This document shows, in pieces, positions 1 through 6,480 of a stretch of 59,332 nucleotides of DNA. Under the pieces are notes generated by a model, which was given only the letters and a program-made list of their open reading frames with translations, did not search any database and was not told the origin of the DNA. The translations under genes and the position numbers were made by a program. The stretch spans positions 1 through 59,332 of the forward strand of contig JAYSTF010000131.1 in NCBI GenBank assembly GCA_043720065.1. The letters are read 5' to 3'. How positions within the stretch are numbered: position 1 is the stretch's first letter; each line of letters opens with the position of its first letter. Source of the DNA: Pseudobdellovibrionaceae bacterium (GTDB taxonomy: Bacteria > Bdellovibrionota > Bdellovibrionia > Bdellovibrionales > UBA1609).

Positions 1-319
1 AATTGCTAATAAAAATTTAATATCGCCGCAGGGCGGAATATTAATGGCCGTCAAATCAATCGGCGGATTTCGTTAACTTCGCCGTGCGAAGTACCGGCAA
101 AGCGCTGATCTCGTGGACATATGTGACATAAGTGTTGTGCGCGTCTCAAAAAGTGCACGGCTTGCGATATAAATAAAACATATTTATAATGGGTCGCCCC
201 TCACTCTGCAGCATAACCAAAGGTTTTAAAAACCATTAAAATTTTGATCTGGTGCGAAGTCATCGCATCTCTTAATCTGGGTGCTAGGTTCTATTGGGCC
301 TAGAGAGGAGGTGGTGCTA

Positions 320-367
320 ATGGTTAATAAGTATTTAAGACCTGAGGCGGAGGTGATCGCCACCTGA
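320..367 (+). CDS. Candidate 15-aa small ORF (MVNKYLRPEAEVIAT) inside a structured RNA
   Basis: Strong SD GAGGAGGTGG (305-314) 5 nt before ATG 320; TGA 365-367; hairpin 405-423 downstream. Confidence 0.35.
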   Translation: MVNKYLRPEAEVIAT

Positions 368-404
368 CCACCTAGGCTGACTTAAAAATTGGTCTAGAAC
401 AGGA

Positions 405-423
405 AGGCGAGTTGTCTTCGCCT
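405..423. terminator. Hairpin AGGCGA-N7-TCGCCT between convergent units
   Basis: 6-bp inverted repeat 25 nt past the Clp-like gene stop; weak U-tract. Confidence 0.35.
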
Positions 424-448
424 ATTAATAACCATACGGGCTAGGAGT

Positions 449-2662
449 TTACTCCTGGCCCGTTTCATTTTTGGGAGTGAGAAATGCGGCGCAATTGGCG
501 CGTAGCAGGTCTTTAATTTCTAACTCGTACTCTTTAATGAGTTTTTCTTCAGCGTTCACATGGCTGACCAGAACTTTAGAGTTATCGTCCTTGAGGTTGA
601 GCTTCAACTTGATTCCACGTAATGGCAGTCCCAGATCGTAGGCTTCGGAAATCGCAGTTTCGGTCAAGTCATTCAACATTCCATCGAGAGCCCGTAAACC
701 CATTTTCTGCTGTGCCGCAGTTTTCGCCACGAAATTAATAATGTCCGGTTCTATTTTGACGGTCAGGTTTGAGCGAGTTTTCAAATCAGCAACAACTCTT
801 TTCGCATTTATGGCAACCACATCCGCATAGCGCGACTTTTTCACTGGCGGCAGAAGAACAATGCCGCCGGTGCGAACAGCCCGATCAATCAATGCTGCGG
901 GAACCGCGCCTTTGCCGTTGCCAGCGCCGGCCTTCAAAATTTCCTTTAACCTTTCCTGAGTCATGATTTTCATGATTTCTGCGACCTCGTCGTCGGTCTT
1001 ATCCTTAAAAATTTCCTCGCCCCACTGGCCCATAATAAAGATGGGTTTAAGGCCCAGTGGCCGCGGCCGTTTATCAACACCGGTGGGCCGAATTGTCGCG
1101 TTTTCAACCACGGTCTTGAGCTGGTCGAAGCTGCTTGAAGGCATGTCTTTAGCTTCATCAAAAGTGACCGCGCCGTTGGCGGGGCCGTCTTCCGCGGCTA
1201 AAGCAAGAAGGGGCAAATCTTGATCGCCTGAGGATTCGAGGATCGCGCGCATCCGGGCTTCCGCTGAATTGGAAAGATCAAAAGCCAAATGCTTGCCGTC
1301 ATGGCCAAACATTTCTTTATTTATGGCCTGAACGATCGTGTTCTTACCGCTTCCGCTAGGGCCCATTATGATAAATACCGGAACTTCGCGGAAGTTCGTC
1401 GCCCGGCCGGTTTTAATCCGCCTTACAATTTGAGTCACCGCAGGTGTTTGATCGACGACATGCGCTTCCACTCTTTTTTGCAGATTCCAGAGCGGCGGTT
1501 TGCCATCGGCCGTCGGTAGCCACGCGTGTGCCGGCAAATGATTCTGCTCAACAAGATAGTGATAGGCCTCATCGATAGTAAGTTGCTCGCCATGTTTACG
1601 AAAGGCGGGATTTCTTGTCGCCCAGAGGAAGAGTCCATCCAATACTTTGAGGACAGAGTCGGGCATGGCAAGTGGTGGAGAGGCAAAAAAACTTTTCATT
1701 GAGAGAAGGTAGACAAGCGTTTCATCATCGACATAGAAGCCGTAGCGCCCCAGTAGGGCATCGCGCTTGGAGCTTAAGATTTTCATCACGTCTTCGTTCG
1801 ACGGCTCAAGATTTAAGATCTTTTCAAAGCGGCGCTCATTGGCGCTGTCTGCTTTGATCATCTCGCGATACTCGCCGGGGGTTGTGATTCCAATGGCGGA
1901 ATAGCCGACCTCTTCACCCTTTTCGAGTTTAGTTGAAGCACTCGTTTTAAAGCCCGTATTGTCTAGAATTGGCTTTAAGGCCTCTAGAACCAATTCCGGA
2001 AGGGTTGCCACCTCTTCCATGATAAATACCGTGCGAATCTTATGTTCTTTAAAATCTGTTTTTGCCGCTTTAAAAAGATCGGCGATCATGCTTCGCATCC
2101 GGCTATCCGATTTCGCGAAGGCATTTCCAGGTTTCGTATTATCGAGGCTTAGGAGCGAATGATTAATTAGTAAAAACTGAGTGTTCTTAAAAAACGCGCC
2201 TCGCAGCTCGTTTAAAAACTCGGACTCATTTTCACGTAGGCCCAATGGGACTTCCAAGAATTCAGGAGCTAAGCCAAAAGTGAGAAGCGTGACTAGCTGA
2301 TCGATCAAAAAAGTCTTTCCTGAACCGGCTTCGCCGATCAGCATGACGTTGGAGTAGCTAGTTCGACCGAGCGCGAACATTATCTTGGCAAGATTTTGCG
2401 CTGAAATTTTTGAGAAAGTTTTTAGTAATGCTTCGCGAGCTTCAGCGTTTACTTCGCCCTCAGCATCAAAGGCCTTGTCCGGCAAAAACGCGGTTTCGAT
2501 GTCTTGGCGTTTCTTAACCGCAAGGAGGAATTCTTCGGTGCCGTCGCGCATTTTTAGATCATGTGTGAGGTAACTTTCCAAAGCGGTCGGTTTGGAATTT
2601 GCCGCGAGGGCCGAGCTTGCGAACGTAATGAGTGCTGCCAACACGATCGATCTTTTAACCAC
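449..2662 (-). CDS. Clp/Hsp100-like two-domain AAA+ ATPase with N-terminal Sec signal peptide
   Basis: Walker A GEAGSGKT and GPSGSGKN, Walker B FIMEE and VTFDE; GITTPGEYREMIKADSANERRF matches ClpB GATTxxEYR...ERRF; probable GTG start 2662 (SD GGGGTGA) gives MVKRSIVLAALITFASSALA-. Confidence 0.8.
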   Translation of the reverse strand: MVKRSIVLAALITFASSALAANSKPTALESYLTHDLKMRDGTEEFLLAVKKRQDIETAFLPDKAFDAEGEVNAEAREALLKTFSKISAQNLAKIMFALGRTSYSNVMLIGEAGSGKTFLIDQLVTLLTFGLAPEFLEVPLGLRENESEFLNELRGAFFKNTQFLLINHSLLSLDNTKPGNAFAKSDSRMRSMIADLFKAAKTDFKEHKIRTVFIMEEVATLPELVLEALKPILDNTGFKTSASTKLEKGEEVGYSAIGITTPGEYREMIKADSANERRFEKILNLEPSNEDVMKILSSKRDALLGRYGFYVDDETLVYLLSMKSFFASPPLAMPDSVLKVLDGLFLWATRNPAFRKHGEQLTIDEAYHYLVEQNHLPAHAWLPTADGKPPLWNLQKRVEAHVVDQTPAVTQIVRRIKTGRATNFREVPVFIIMGPSGSGKNTIVQAINKEMFGHDGKHLAFDLSNSAEARMRAILESSGDQDLPLLALAAEDGPANGAVTFDEAKDMPSSSFDQLKTVVENATIRPTGVDKRPRPLGLKPIFIMGQWGEEIFKDKTDDEVAEIMKIMTQERLKEILKAGAGNGKGAVPAALIDRAVRTGGIVLLPPVKKSRYADVVAINAKRVVADLKTRSNLTVKIEPDIINFVAKTAAQQKMGLRALDGMLNDLTETAISEAYDLGLPLRGIKLKLNLKDDNSKVLVSHVNAEEKLIKEYELEIKDLLRANCAAFLTPKNETGQE

Positions 2663-2785: not shown

Positions 2786-3682
2786 TCACGGGAGGACCCT
2801 CCACCCTCGGCGCTGCCAGCGGGTCGGTCCGAGCGGGGCAACGTCCGGCACGTTTGCTCCGCTGCCGACGAGTAATCCCAGCCTCTTAACGGGTTGGACG
2901 TGATGAAGTTCTATCCATCGATCATTCGCACAGCGATCGCCATTATCATTAGTATGAGTACAACGACCTTGATCTCGCGCGTGAACTTGATGTTTCGTGC
3001 GGGCGGGAAGCGGCGCTCGCTTTGAACCCGCTTGAACTCTGAACGTGCAGAGTTTTGGATTAACTGGCTTCTTCGCAAGCACTCGCTCGGCCTTCCTAAC
3101 CGGATCATGGCGATGCAAGTAATCGTCCAGAACTTCTGATAGAATTTTGTCTAGACTAAATTTACCCTGCGCCGCTAGAAGCGACTTTACCCGTTCAAGT
3201 TTTTCGTGTGTGCCTTTCGTTATCCCGCACTCAAGCTGAACAAGATCTTCACCCTTAAATTTAATTCTATCTGAAACGGCAGAACTTGGCTGAAGGCGCG
3301 CGACTTCAACTTCAGTTTGGCGCGTAGTATGCGTCTGAGCAAATTTAACTAGATCAGATGCATTCTCTTTGTTAATCACAGCCACGATGCGACTAGCCTT
3401 AGCAACCGTGATATTTTGTTCAATGACAGCGGTTCTTAACTCCGGGATCTCCCGACTTTTGCGAGCCACTGAAATAAATGCGTAAGCGTTGGCTTCACTT
3501 AACCCCAACGCGCCTACGGCATAAGTAAATAGACTGGCATATCCCAATCGTTTAAAAAACTTTTGTTGATCGATTTCGCCTAAGATTAAAATAAGCTCGC
3601 CCTCGAGGCGCCGAAATTCTCGGCTTACCTTAATTGCGCGCTCGTGTAACTCGAGATGGTTTCTATCAAGTACTTCTGACAT
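2786..3682 (-). pseudogene. HNH endonuclease (DUF222-like N-terminus), copy 1, second half of HNH motif deleted
   Basis: RDQGRC..C..WIELHHVQP then abrupt loss of GGSN..NL..LC..HH; about 92 nt shorter than copy 2 here; start MSEVLD at 3682 with SD GAAGGAGG. Confidence 0.75.
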
Positions 3683-3915
3683 TTCAATTCCTCCTTCACG
3701 AATTAAAAGGAAATCTACCACATGTTTTTGAGAGTGAGTTTTTCGCGGCCACCGATCATGACATTGCGGGGCTCGCTGTTAAGCTTAAACGTTAGTGTAG
3801 CGGGCGATTCCAAAGCAAAATCACTTTTAAAATAAAATTCAAGATTGAATTAAATAACGCCCTAATTAGGATGCGCGGAAGTCCGTCAACTAAATTATTC
3901 ACGAGAAAAATATTT
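2819..3915 (-). mobile_element. Dispersed HNH repeat element, copy 1
   Basis: Colinear similarity to 51693-52890 including non-coding flanks; identical 21-mer CACGTTTGCTCCGCTGCCGAC at 2849-2869. Confidence 0.6.
3792..3902 (-). CDS. Candidate 36-aa hydrophobic upstream ORF of the HNH element
   Basis: GTG start; VNNLVDGLPRILIRALFNSILNFILKVILLWNRPLH; same length and frame in copy 2; no SD. Confidence 0.3.
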   Translation of the reverse strand: MNNLVDGLPRILIRALFNSILNFILKVILLWNRPLH

Positions 3916-4032
3916 GTGTATGCCAAGTAAGAAGGTCTAGGCTTGAACCACGAGGTGCAAATGAAAAATAATTTTATTACCTCAGTTCTTTTTCCTCCCC
4001 GCTGTAAATACTGACAAAGCCCGCGGGGCGGG

Positions 4033-6480
4033 TCAGATGTTCGATTTGCGCCAGAGGGGCCAAACGCTTAAGATTGCTCCCACCAATACAATGACTAGCT
4101 GAATGCGGAAGTCTGGCCAGCGCCACGTTTCAAATAAGATTTGCGATGAGACGACACTCAACAGATTCCCTAAAAGTAGGCCGAAGACCAAAGCGCTGCC
4201 GCTCCACAGTAGAGATTCTAGCCAGCCGGCTGATTTGAGCCATTTTGTCGAGGCGCCGATCCATGAAAACAAAAGACGTTCGCTTTTTCGCTCGCGCCAC
4301 TGATGCCAAGAGAGCATGGACAATAGCAAAGCGGTAACGATCAATGCTAAGCCCGTGATTCCAAGAATTGGCCAACCCAAGTTATCAGTAAGATCTTTAA
4401 GGCGCTCGATGGTGGTGGCGAGATTCAGTAAAGAGAGAGTGGGAAACTGATTGGCAAGGCTTGCTTGGGTTGAAAAGAGCCGGTCCGTCTCCAGGCCATA
4501 AATTACGGCAAGAAAAGATTTTGGATATTCCTCTAGGACTCCGGGCGGGAACTGTAAAAAGAAATTCGGTTGGAAAGAACTCCATTTCACTTCGCGAAGA
4601 TTTTGAATGAATGCAGTCATTTTTACGCCGGCGATTTCAAACTCAAGTTCATCGCCCAGTTTCAACGATGTGCGCTGGGCGAATTCTTTTTCCACGCTGA
4701 TGCCGAGCTTTTCTCCGGGCGTAAATGTTTTATCTAAGGGCTTTCCCGCAACTAAAGTCTCGGCTTCTGTCAGTTCAGCGCGGTAGGTGAGGCGAACAGG
4801 GCGCCGACGAATGCCGTCGTCGGTAGGCACTTGGCCGTTTTGTTTAATGACCCGTGCAAGTAGAAGCGGTGAGGCATGACGTAAGTCCCCACCAGCGCTG
4901 CTGACGGCGGCCGAAAACGGTTTTAGGTCCTCTTCATTGATGTTAATCGCAAAAAGCTGAGGAAGTTCTTTAACCGACGGTGTGTGAATCTCCTGGCGCG
5001 CTACTTCGTAAAGATTTGGAATGGCGCTACCAATTGCGGCACTCCACCCAAGGCCTAGCCAAATCAGCGCGAGCAAAAGCCTTGGGCGCGAGAGTCCAAG
5101 GACGACAACTCTGGTCATACCTTCAGGATGAAACATAGCGATGGCAAGCCGTAGTAACTTCGGAAGTAACCAACCCGAAACAAGAAGTAACATTACAAGC
5201 GTCACTATTAATGCTCCCGCGATCGCGACCGAACTTAAGAGCCAAGCCGCAAGTGCCATGTAAGACCCAAGGGCAACTAGAATTGAGAAAAAATCCCTCC
5301 GCCATCCGATGACAGGAAGACTTGGGGCTGAATGATTAAGGAGTTGATCGAGGGCCATTTGTTTAAGCCGAATTAAGAAGGGGAGTCCAAACATCAAAAA
5401 ATTTCCGGCAAGAAGCACTAAAGACAAGAGCAGCGAAACTTCCGTCACGACAAGCTCTCCCCCGCCCGGTAGGACCGCTCTTAAGCTGGGATTTAGGGCG
5501 CGAATCTGCGCTAGAACGATAAGCCAGGCCGTACTCCAACTAGCGAAAAGAATCAGCACTACTTGAGCGAAGGCAGCTAACGCAACACTTGAATGTTTTG
5601 CGCCTAGGATTTCGTATAGCGCGAAAATACCGGCCCGTTCTCTTAAGTGAATTTGCAGTAAATAAAATCCAGTGACAAAGCCAAGAAGCGCTAAAAACAA
5701 AGTCAGCAGCGAGACAAATCTTTCGACAAACTGAATGGCGCGTTTCACTCCGGCCACAGCGTCGTTCGGTGTTCTTAAGACGAGCTCTTCGGGCCAGTTT
5801 TCCAGTCGTACTCGGGCTTTGTCCAAATCGGTCCCAGAAGGCAGAGTCATCGTTGCGCGATACTGAACTTGGCTCCCTGGTTGAACGAGGTTGGTACCTG
5901 CGAGATCCTCTCGATGGATGTAAGCTCGAGGTGCGAAACCTACAGCTCCGCGCTTAGCACCAACGTCGGCCTCAATAAGGCCAGACACCTTGAAGTTACT
6001 TTCTCCAACGCGCACCTCGTCGCCGACCGTAATCTTAAGTTCCTCCGCCAATTCCTTGGCCAGCCAGATTAACTTATGACTTAGAGTGCCTGGATCGGCA
6101 ATGCCGTCGCCTAATTTAATTTCGCCAACGGTCGGGAAGACTTTAGTGATCGCTTTTAAATCAACCAGAGAAGCTTTGTCTGAAAACCGAAGCGTCGCCA
6201 AAAGTTCCGTCTCGAGTGAAATCACGCTCGGCAAGTATACGTTTCGGATTTGCTCAAGTTCCGTTTCCGCCAGAGGCCGAGTTGAACTGACTTGAAAATC
6301 CCCGGTAAGGAGCTGACGCGCTTGAGTGCGGACAAGATGGAGTTGGGAATCTTTGAGACTTAAGCTAGTGACTAGGGCCCAAAACCCAAGTGTAAGTGCG
6401 ATATAAGTTAAAGCAAGATTTCGCCTTGAGCGCCAAAGATCTAAAATTTGCAGGTGCAAAAGTTTAACTAACTGTCTCAA
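4033..6480 (-). CDS. ybbP: ABC transporter permease, YbbP/FtsX-MacB family
   Basis: Two TM/periplasmic repeats, REVKWSSFQPNFF motif, downstream of ABC ATPase and TesA. Confidence 0.8.
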   Translation of the reverse strand: MRQLVKLLHLQILDLWRSRRNLALTYIALTLGFWALVTSLSLKDSQLHLVRTQARQLLTGDFQVSSTRPLAETELEQIRNVYLPSVISLETELLATLRFSDKASLVDLKAITKVFPTVGEIKLGDGIADPGTLSHKLIWLAKELAEELKITVGDEVRVGESNFKVSGLIEADVGAKRGAVGFAPRAYIHREDLAGTNLVQPGSQVQYRATMTLPSGTDLDKARVRLENWPEELVLRTPNDAVAGVKRAIQFVERFVSLLTLFLALLGFVTGFYLLQIHLRERAGIFALYEILGAKHSSVALAAFAQVVLILFASWSTAWLIVLAQIRALNPSLRAVLPGGGELVVTEVSLLLSLVLLAGNFLMFGLPFLIRLKQMALDQLLNHSAPSLPVIGWRRDFFSILVALGSYMALAAWLLSSVAIAGALIVTLVMLLLVSGWLLPKLLRLAIAMFHPEGMTRVVVLGLSRPRLLLALIWLGLGWSAAIGSAIPNLYEVARQEIHTPSVKELPQLFAININEEDLKPFSAAVSSAGGDLRHASPLLLARVIKQNGQVPTDDGIRRRPVRLTYRAELTEAETLVAGKPLDKTFTPGEKLGISVEKEFAQRTSLKLGDELEFEIAGVKMTAFIQNLREVKWSSFQPNFFLQFPPGVLEEYPKSFLAVIYGLETDRLFSTQASLANQFPTLSLLNLATTIERLKDLTDNLGWPILGITGLALIVTALLLSMLSWHQWRERKSERLLFSWIGASTKWLKSAGWLESLLWSGSALVFGLLLGNLLSVVSSQILFETWRWPDFRIQLVIVLVGAILSVWPLWRKSNI

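Follow-up and report, generated by a model that had tools for sequence, protein, structure and literature searches.

A two-ring Clp/Hsp100-type ATPase with an export-signal-like N-terminus in Bdellovibrionota: a candidate unfoldase for use outside the producer's cytoplasm

The minus-strand open reading frame (ORF) at positions 449–2695 of a 59,332-nt stretch of contig JAYSTF010000131.1 (Pseudobdellovibrionaceae bacterium, GCA_043720065.1) encodes a divergent two-ring Clp/Hsp100 ATPase whose fold matches that of ClpC, ClpB and ClpA. (The whole stretch is called the window below, and all positions follow its forward-strand numbering.) The protein is without the Clp N-domain, the M-domain and the ClpP loop, the residues for binding and hydrolysing ATP are conserved in both of its rings, and a signal-like N-terminus runs through its family. 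The reading favoured here, at a probability of roughly 0.5, is that it is a stand-alone ATPase made with a cleavable Sec signal peptide and working outside the cytoplasm of its producer. Sec export and cleavage of the signal we infer from the sequence.

To our knowledge, the view taken of bacterial AAA+ unfoldases is that their work is confined to the cytoplasm or to a face turned towards it, the periplasm having no ATP. In the present family the ATPase residues are the most constrained, yet nearly every member has an export-signal-like N-terminus, and it is backed by a second signal-like AAA+ family, one fused to a protease, from the same phylum, which is largely predatory. If export is true, it would mean that proteins are unfolded with energy in a prey compartment or elsewhere outside the cytoplasm, or else that such a place has an unrecognised supply of ATP, and whether prey ATP powers the secreted machines of predators would become a testable question. 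A full-text literature search gave no paper speaking of a periplasmic, extracytoplasmic, secreted or exported AAA+ protein, and for Bdellovibrio AAA+ proteins with a signal peptide or in the periplasm nothing relevant was among the matches listed.

Identity and domain layout

The frame and its two rings are placed as follows.

449–2695 (−): whole ORF, 748 amino acids (aa) counted from the first ATG; stop codon at 449–451
1514–2587 (−): ring 1 (NBD1, large and small subdomains), residues ~37–394, from PDB matches, the model and Foldseek
506–1513 (−): ring 2 (NBD2 and D2-small domain), residues ~395–730, from the ClpB_D2-small score, the model and Foldseek

Sequence search of the PDB gave ClpC, ClpB and Hsp101 at E values of 4.5e-16 to 1e-14, in separate stretches that together cover both rings, with Plasmodium HSP101 among the top matches (E 1.3e-14). 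An AlphaFold2 model made from the 38-sequence family alignment (mean pLDDT 89.9, pTM 0.82) was matched by Foldseek to chains of ClpC, ClpB and ClpA hexamers at E 3e-27 to 1e-22, with TM scores of 0.45–0.71 and 16–18% identity. Both AAA+ modules carry the Walker A, Walker B, sensor and arginine-finger residues by which class I Clp/Hsp100 proteins are recognised. The first-pass annotation, made from the sequence alone, had seen two modules of ClpA/ClpB type, and in this the PDB, AlphaFold and Foldseek results agree with it. The motif LESYLTHDL at the start of ring 1 was aligned to the L-x-K-Y-x-x-DLT that, we take it, opens a canonical NBD1.

The distance from named members of the superfamily is large. 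The NCBIfam models for TssH, ClpA and ClpB score 81, 75 and 66 bits against cut-offs of 885–1232, and the curated cut-off of no ClpA, ClpB, TssH, ClpG or ClpK model in NCBIfam is reached (best 81 vs 885 bits). Pfam matches are generic P-loop and AAA ones, with ClpB_D2-small at residues 623–685 just below its cut-off (20.4 vs 21.9 bits), and the ESM Atlas gives nothing more specific than generic clusters of two-ring AAA+ proteins. Among 5.8 billion proteins searched by a word index, 12 homologues came up at E 2e-259 to 8e-88 (32–56% identity), after which the next match, across a large gap, is a canonical Clp at 1.3e-15; an exhaustive HMMER search of 1.84 billion representatives returned 40 proteins at E<=1e-30, of which several are fragments. 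By this gap in E value, the signal-bearing two-ring Clp is a distinct small family set apart from canonical Clp. The window's genome has three further ordinary Clp-type ORFs (781, 878 and 868 aa), and the protein is thus an extra paralogue.

Three parts familiar from Clp proteins were claimed in the first-pass annotation to be missing, and all three are. There is no Clp_N domain among the 25 best of 55 Pfam matches, and NBD1 begins ~5 residues past the putative cleavage site of the signal-like segment that stands in its place, which leaves the N-domain absent. In the AlphaFold model helices between residues 290 and 440, that is from the ring-1 arginine fingers (288–289) to the ring-2 Walker A, reach 19 residues at most, so there is no M-domain coiled coil. 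The spacing from R289 to K451 is 162 aa, and in ClpA the corresponding stretch from ring-1 arginine fingers to ring-2 Walker A is presumably likewise ~160 residues. On manual reading of the sequence no ClpP-docking [IL]-G-[FL] or IGF-type tripeptide follows the ring-2 sensor-1 strand (GQWGEEIFKDKTDDEV), the canonical position of the docking loop being, we assume, after the last sensor-1 strand; RPLGL at 544–548 precedes the strand and is not at that position.

With ClpA and ClpC the window protein shares two tandem AAA+ rings and an aromatic ring-1 pore loop, and these give its best fold matches (ClpC E 3e-27, ClpA E 5e-24). It differs from them in having neither Clp_N, ClpP loop nor the ring-2 GYVG tyrosine, in its ring-2 GK[DN] and in its signal-like N-terminus, and from ClpA it stands far off (75 bits against a cut-off of 993; 16–18% identity). 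ClpV/TssH, the best NCBIfam match at 81 bits, is like it a stand-alone remodeller without ClpP, but the score is far under the 885-bit cut-off, the sheath-binding N-domain is missing and ClpV is cytoplasmic.

Signal-like N-terminus and start codon

2603–2662 (−): signal-peptide-like segment, residues 12–31; n-region MVKR, core SIVLAALITFASS, c-region ALA, putative cleavage A31|A32

The candidate starts are ATG 2695, ATG 2686 with AGGA 8 bases upstream (the start in the public gene call, P0002, 745 aa) and GTG 2662 (residue 12) with GGGGTGA 4 bases upstream, the last being in frame and the end coordinate of the 449–2662 interval of the first-pass annotation. Any of the three gives an N-terminal hydrophobic segment, MVKR-SIVLAALITFASS-ALA|AN. 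From GTG 2662 the protein opens with MVKR, SIVLAALITFASS and ALA|A, 20 aa that fit the Sec signal-peptide rules used here (basic n-region, hydrophobic core of 7–15 residues, small residues at −3 and −1, ~20–30 aa in total).

The segment is a property of the family. With an 11-residue window of Kyte-Doolittle score >=2.0 within the first 45 aa as the test, a hydrophobic N-terminus is found in 36/37 full-length members vs 11/107 canonical Clp matches, and in those 11 the window sits near residue 30, inside the N-domain. The family has a median uncharged run of 18 residues and a median hydrophobic core of 15, on the short side for a helix that spans a membrane. A small-x-small site lies close to the end of the run in 34 of the 37 (by a permissive rule, applied without a control), and textbook-like sites occur ~20–25 residues from the start: PAFA|G, AAFA|R, PALA|S, TAYA|G, TALA|N. 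The window protein has a net charge of +2 ahead of the segment and of 0 behind it, from which an N-in, C-out orientation is predicted; across the 37 members, when the 15 residues after the segment are compared with those before, 19 are N-biased, 5 neutral and 13 C-biased. [Charged low-complexity linkers of up to ~250 aa separate the signal-like segment from NBD1 in P0009, P0124, P0141, P0144 and P0149, the REARQ repeats of P0009 being an example; the window protein has almost no linker.]

The first-pass annotation had held that its idea of export would fall if the true start were downstream of the hydrophobic segment or if homologues lacked the signal. Further in-frame start codons do exist downstream: GTG and TTG within the hydrophobic core, TTG at L39 and ATG at M49. 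Starting at one of these, for instance at L39, where the TTG sits immediately before the conserved LESYL block, the protein would be an ordinary soluble cytoplasmic Clp paralogue without an N-domain. That is very hard to credit. No purine-rich, ribosome-binding stretch was found upstream of the L39 codon, a start at M49 would remove the family-conserved L43/L47 block, and 36 of 37 homologues, in independent assemblies, are hydrophobic and signal-like in the upstream frame. Such a frame would not be kept if untranslated.

ATPase sites

Residues are numbered from the first ATG of the window protein, and counts refer to the 38 aligned family sequences.

2312–2335 (−): ring-1 Walker A GEAGSGKT, 121–128; GK[TS] in 38/38
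2111–2122 (−): ring-1 pore loop AFAK, 192–195; position 193 F, W or Y in 31/38
2012–2029 (−): ring-1 Walker B VFIMEE, 223–228; E228 in 38/38; position 227 E in 25, D in 12, N in 1
1829–1834 (−): ring-1 arginine pair R288-R289; invariant, 38/38
1337–1363 (−): ring-2 Walker A GPSGSGKNT, 445–453; K451 in 38/38; position 452 D in 30, N in 7, S in 1
1154–1168 (−): ring-2 Walker B VTFDE, 510–514; E514 in 37/38; position 513 N in 29, D in 9
1025–1027 (−): ring-2 sensor-1 position Q557; Q in 36/38
881–883 (−): ring-2 arginine-finger position R605; 38/38
692–694 (−): ring-2 sensor-2 position R668; 38/38

Mean column identity in the alignment is 29%, with 18 invariant columns, and 11 of these 18 are catalytic (G124/G126/K127, E228, T272, R288/R289, G450/K451, R605 and R668). 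Since the catalytic residues of both rings are thus the most conserved positions, an ATPase with an export signal is a real paradox and not a decayed relic. Ring 1 is canonical. The Walker variants that had been noted earlier, EE in ring 1 and GKN in ring 2, are both present, and ring 2 is odd in a further respect: the aromatic pore loop of threading unfoldases is kept in ring 1 only, the ring-2 GYVG tyrosine being lost (GPPxGNHSD or a deletion in its place).

The ring-2 oddities at positions 452 (1340–1342) and 513 (1157–1159) co-vary, one being an acid and the other an amide in 36 of the 38 sequences, or 37 if GKS with DE is taken as canonical. GKD pairs with a Walker B N in 29/30 and GKN pairs with DE in 7/7, the sole clear exception being P0150 (GKD with DE). 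A tree built with these two columns left out has 6 changes in Walker A and 7 in Walker B; on well-supported branches 4/4 independent pairs of changes go in the same direction, four pairs having a sign-test floor of p 0.125. The swap would amount to a metal ligand relocated from Walker B to Walker A at a site that still binds Mg-nucleotide, and because it is compensatory it argues for selection on a working site of this kind. Walker A Thr replaced by Asp or Asn, together with Walker B Asp or Asn, would then be a natural compensatory P-loop pair, and it includes the torsin-type GKN.

Likeness to AAA+ proteins outside the cytoplasm

Loss of the pore-loop aromatic is something that ring 2 of the window protein presumably has in common with torsins. 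Its GKN with DE, shared with 6 other members (30/38 have GKD), is also theirs: in the text available from PMC5628414, torsins are AAA+ proteins of the endoplasmic reticulum lumen with a cleaved signal sequence and a Clp-D2-like module that has GxxxxGKN and a Walker B DE, and ClpB whose Walker A is changed to the torsin-type form has reduced activity. They differ, according to the same partial text (PMC5628414), in having a single ring and no arginine finger, the window protein having two modules with R605 and R668 invariant. Homology to torsins was considered and rejected: the Pfam Torsin model gives 12.5 bits against a cut-off of 27 (E 0.16), and no torsin chain is among the best 60 of 74 PDB matches to ring 2. 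The resemblance is best read as convergent.

Plasmodium HSP101, the PTEX motor, operates in the parasitophorous vacuole and threads proteins through a host-derived membrane, as given in the portion of PMC7355975 consulted. What the window protein may share with it is a place of work outside the producer's cytoplasm, which for HSP101 is a compartment bounded by host membrane (same portion of PMC7355975). HSP101 is eukaryotic and, unlike the window protein, has retained an N-domain, an M-domain and, in each ring, a pore-loop tyrosine. No pore partner was found near the family gene in 14 loci. The premise of the first-pass annotation that Hsp100 proteins are always cytoplasmic was too strong, as, in the parts of these sources at hand, HSP101 is in the parasitophorous vacuole (PMC7355975) and torsins are in the endoplasmic reticulum lumen (PMC5628414).

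C-terminal cysteine

491–493 (−): C735, the only cysteine of the window protein; in the C-terminal tail, low-confidence in the model, after the last D2-small strands

In all 37 members with an intact C-terminus a cysteine stands ~10 residues short of the end, in most cases the sole one of the mature protein. An intermolecular disulfide may form through C735. An oxidising envelope is plausible for the window's genome, because VKOR and thioredoxin-like (DsbA-type) domains are found there in a single open frame of 467 aa (contig C172 of G000, ~2955–4067, −); DsbB was not found in this genome, which is 92.8% complete.

Within the genome no wider use of the tail is claimed. C-x3-L was considered as a general sorting tag of exported proteins: it ends 22/660 signal-peptide-like (SP-like) ORFs vs 37/1681 others (Fisher p 0.14), and internal control windows of the SP-like ORFs have it 6 and 11 times vs the 22 of 660 tails. 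A lone tail cysteine is found in 1.8% of SP-like ORFs vs 1.6% of the others. The G000 ORF set and the signal rule behind these counts are both crude. As a separate observation from this genome, the last cysteine is <=10 residues from the C-terminus in 98/568 signal-like ORFs vs 130/1497 others.

A second family with a fused protease

A commoner family of the same phylum, with a match at E<=1e-60 in 40/401 genomes (none was found in the window's genome at that threshold), has a comparable head and tail. Its members, of 1300–1580 aa, include P0170, P0171, P0189 and the loci L040–L049 (e.g. L041, L043, L045), and proteins of this kind with 1424–1543 aa are among the weaker matches of the HMMER family search. 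The layout is a signal-like N-terminus, an N-domain of ~250 aa, three Clp-type AAA+ modules and a C-terminal FtsH-type Peptidase_M41 (HEAGH). No second hydrophobic or membrane segment was found in these proteins. In their third module the Pfam Torsin model scores 36–42 bits, above its cut-off of 27.

At least 6 of the ORFs in the 10 loci open with signal-like segments. Nine of the ORFs run through to a stop codon; each of these has a cysteine 9–26 residues from the end, and 4 of the nine have no other cysteine over >1300 residues. Three database proteins have the identical head and tail pattern. The two families are thus alike in the signal-like N-terminus, the Clp-type modules and the near-C-terminal, often lone, cysteine, and unlike in that the larger one has three modules, an N-domain, a protease and canonical GK[TS] in all modules. 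As two AAA+ architectures share the head and the tail, a gene-calling artefact is unlikely, and the sharing suggests a common cell-biological setting.

How it might work, and rival explanations

In the exported ATPase, ring 1, with its GK[TS], [ED]E, aromatic pore loop and RR, would be the threading motor. Ring 2, without the pore-loop tyrosine and with its Mg ligand on Walker A, would mainly bind nucleotide, and so assemble and regulate the hexamer; the D2 ring of NSF likewise binds nucleotide for hexamer assembly. The lone C-terminal cysteine might staple the oligomer by an intermolecular disulfide in an oxidising envelope. Hexamers of ClpA/ClpB-type Hsp100 proteins assemble only with nucleotide, and the exported protein would therefore be inert in an ATP-free periplasm. 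It would become active only where ATP is present, either in a permeabilised prey cell or in the predator periplasm while prey ATP diffuses in, and the task of the active hexamer would be to open up prey proteins or complexes for secreted proteases that need no ATP. This may be its simplest job, and the protease-fused sister family would fit it. A type II secretion secretin scores above cut-off in the window's genome, and Ruby and McCabe (1986) reportedly described, to go by their title, an ATP transport system in B. bacteriovorus; with these two, prey-derived ATP in a shared compartment or in the predator periplasm is a reasonable source. Delivery to prey is plausible, and the poison of prey cytoplasm proposed in the first-pass annotation is one version of the exported-unfoldase idea. 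A more specific version, a long shot at best, is a bacterial counterpart of PTEX: a secreted motor in the predator–prey compartment, assembled by prey ATP and docked through its C-terminal face and cysteine tail on a prey inner-membrane pore, which would thread unfolded predator hydrolases in or pull prey proteins out. Were it true, it would imply, taken with the M41 fusion family, that Bdellovibrionota power protein machines beyond their own cytoplasm with ATP stolen from prey.

A number of points weigh against export. The judgements on signal peptides are all manual rules of thumb, and we know of no ATP supply in the periplasm. In 13/37 members the flank after the segment is the more positive one (AFA|GKRG and AFA|RKRT, for example). 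Sec substrates do not usually have this, and it is the strongest point in favour of an anchor with its N-terminus out and C-terminus in. Cysteine depletion had to be given up as a sign of export, canonical Clp being equally poor (median 0.15% vs 0.14%). The gene is patchy, present in 14/401 sampled genomes of the phylum (six families, the window's genome included) and not found in the same-genus genome G376, which is 96% complete, or in any of 100 sampled f20 genomes; 3 of the 14 copies are broken (two stops in G338, one in G191, two pieces in G045). In the 14 loci no conserved neighbour such as a secretion partner, protease or pore was found, sharing being limited to same-genus pairs. The named records are all metagenome-assembled genomes (MAGs), mostly of Bdellovibrionota, and predation is assumed from taxonomy labels only.

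The main rival is the reversed anchor just mentioned, in which an uncleaved signal-anchor (N-out, C-in) would hold the hexamer on the cytoplasmic face of the inner membrane, there to remodel or extract membrane proteins with cytoplasmic ATP. FtsH and Msp1 are membrane-tethered with the entry pore facing the bilayer, and the N-terminus of NBD1 is on the entry face of Hsp100 rings, so that a short tether would aim the pore at the membrane. The ATP paradox would vanish, the 13 C-biased and 5 neutral members would be accommodated, and some uncharged runs, at up to 34 residues, are long enough to span a bilayer. Against this, the window protein itself has K and R (+2) on the N-flank and a neutral C-flank, pointing to N-in as in 19/37 members, and the hydrophobic cores have a median of 15 residues, several of them being, at 6–11, too short for a membrane helix. 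AXA-type sites 20–25 residues from the start would be purposeless in an anchor, and it is difficult to see why a single, invariant cysteine would sit in a disordered tail if the protein stayed in the reducing cytoplasm. The reversed anchor is for these reasons unlikely. Quite improbable is a protein that is exported but has lost ATP turnover, and that would either act as a holdase or scaffold without need of nucleotide or sense extracellular ATP. The bacterial periplasm lacks ATP, the ring-2 Walker A and B are non-canonical and its pore-loop tyrosine is missing; ClpB with the torsin-type Walker A is less active, in the available text of PMC5628414. Such a loss does not sit well with a catalytic Glu, arginine fingers and sensors that are invariant or nearly so in both rings, with a fully canonical ring 1, or with the compensatory Walker swap, which argues for a working Mg-nucleotide site.

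Genomic distribution and neighbourhood

The gene was also not found in 53 sampled genomes of f2. Records of the family are labelled Bdellovibrionaceae, Bacteriovoracaceae, Bdellovibrionota, Deltaproteobacteria, 'Proteobacteria' and, in one case, 'WWE3'. The broken copies (G338:C392, G191:C165 and G045:C43; loci L008, L012, L016/L018 and L024), which have in-frame stops or are split as two overlapping ORFs, are pseudogenes or MAG assembly errors.

For the neighbourhood comparison ORFs were clustered over 15 loci, the window and 14 others, of which 14 held the AAA+ gene. In the window the neighbours are an ORF of 311 aa without a Pfam assignment, an ABC transporter pair and a GDSL lipase. Horizontal transfer was considered and rejected, the GC content of the gene (0.48–0.51) matching that of its neighbours. 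The 311-aa ORF is directly upstream (2786–3721, −) and has a Cys/His-rich C-terminus and no Pfam match at E<=1e-5; its region has a GC content of 0.44, and a homologue in L034 (6216–7259) lies one gene from the AAA+ gene (2/15 loci).

436–463 (no strand assigned): 12-bp GC-rich hairpin over the stop codon of the ATPase gene; its T-run is on the + strand, and it scores as a + strand terminator

The hairpin may end the minus-strand transcript too. On the plus strand a promoter-like site at 162–190 (TTGCGA, 17 nt, TATAAT; 10/12 matches) and this hairpin bracket ~250 nt without a long ORF. No Rfam family was matched anywhere in the window, and the region 162–463 (+) may be a small RNA or merely contig-end intergenic region.

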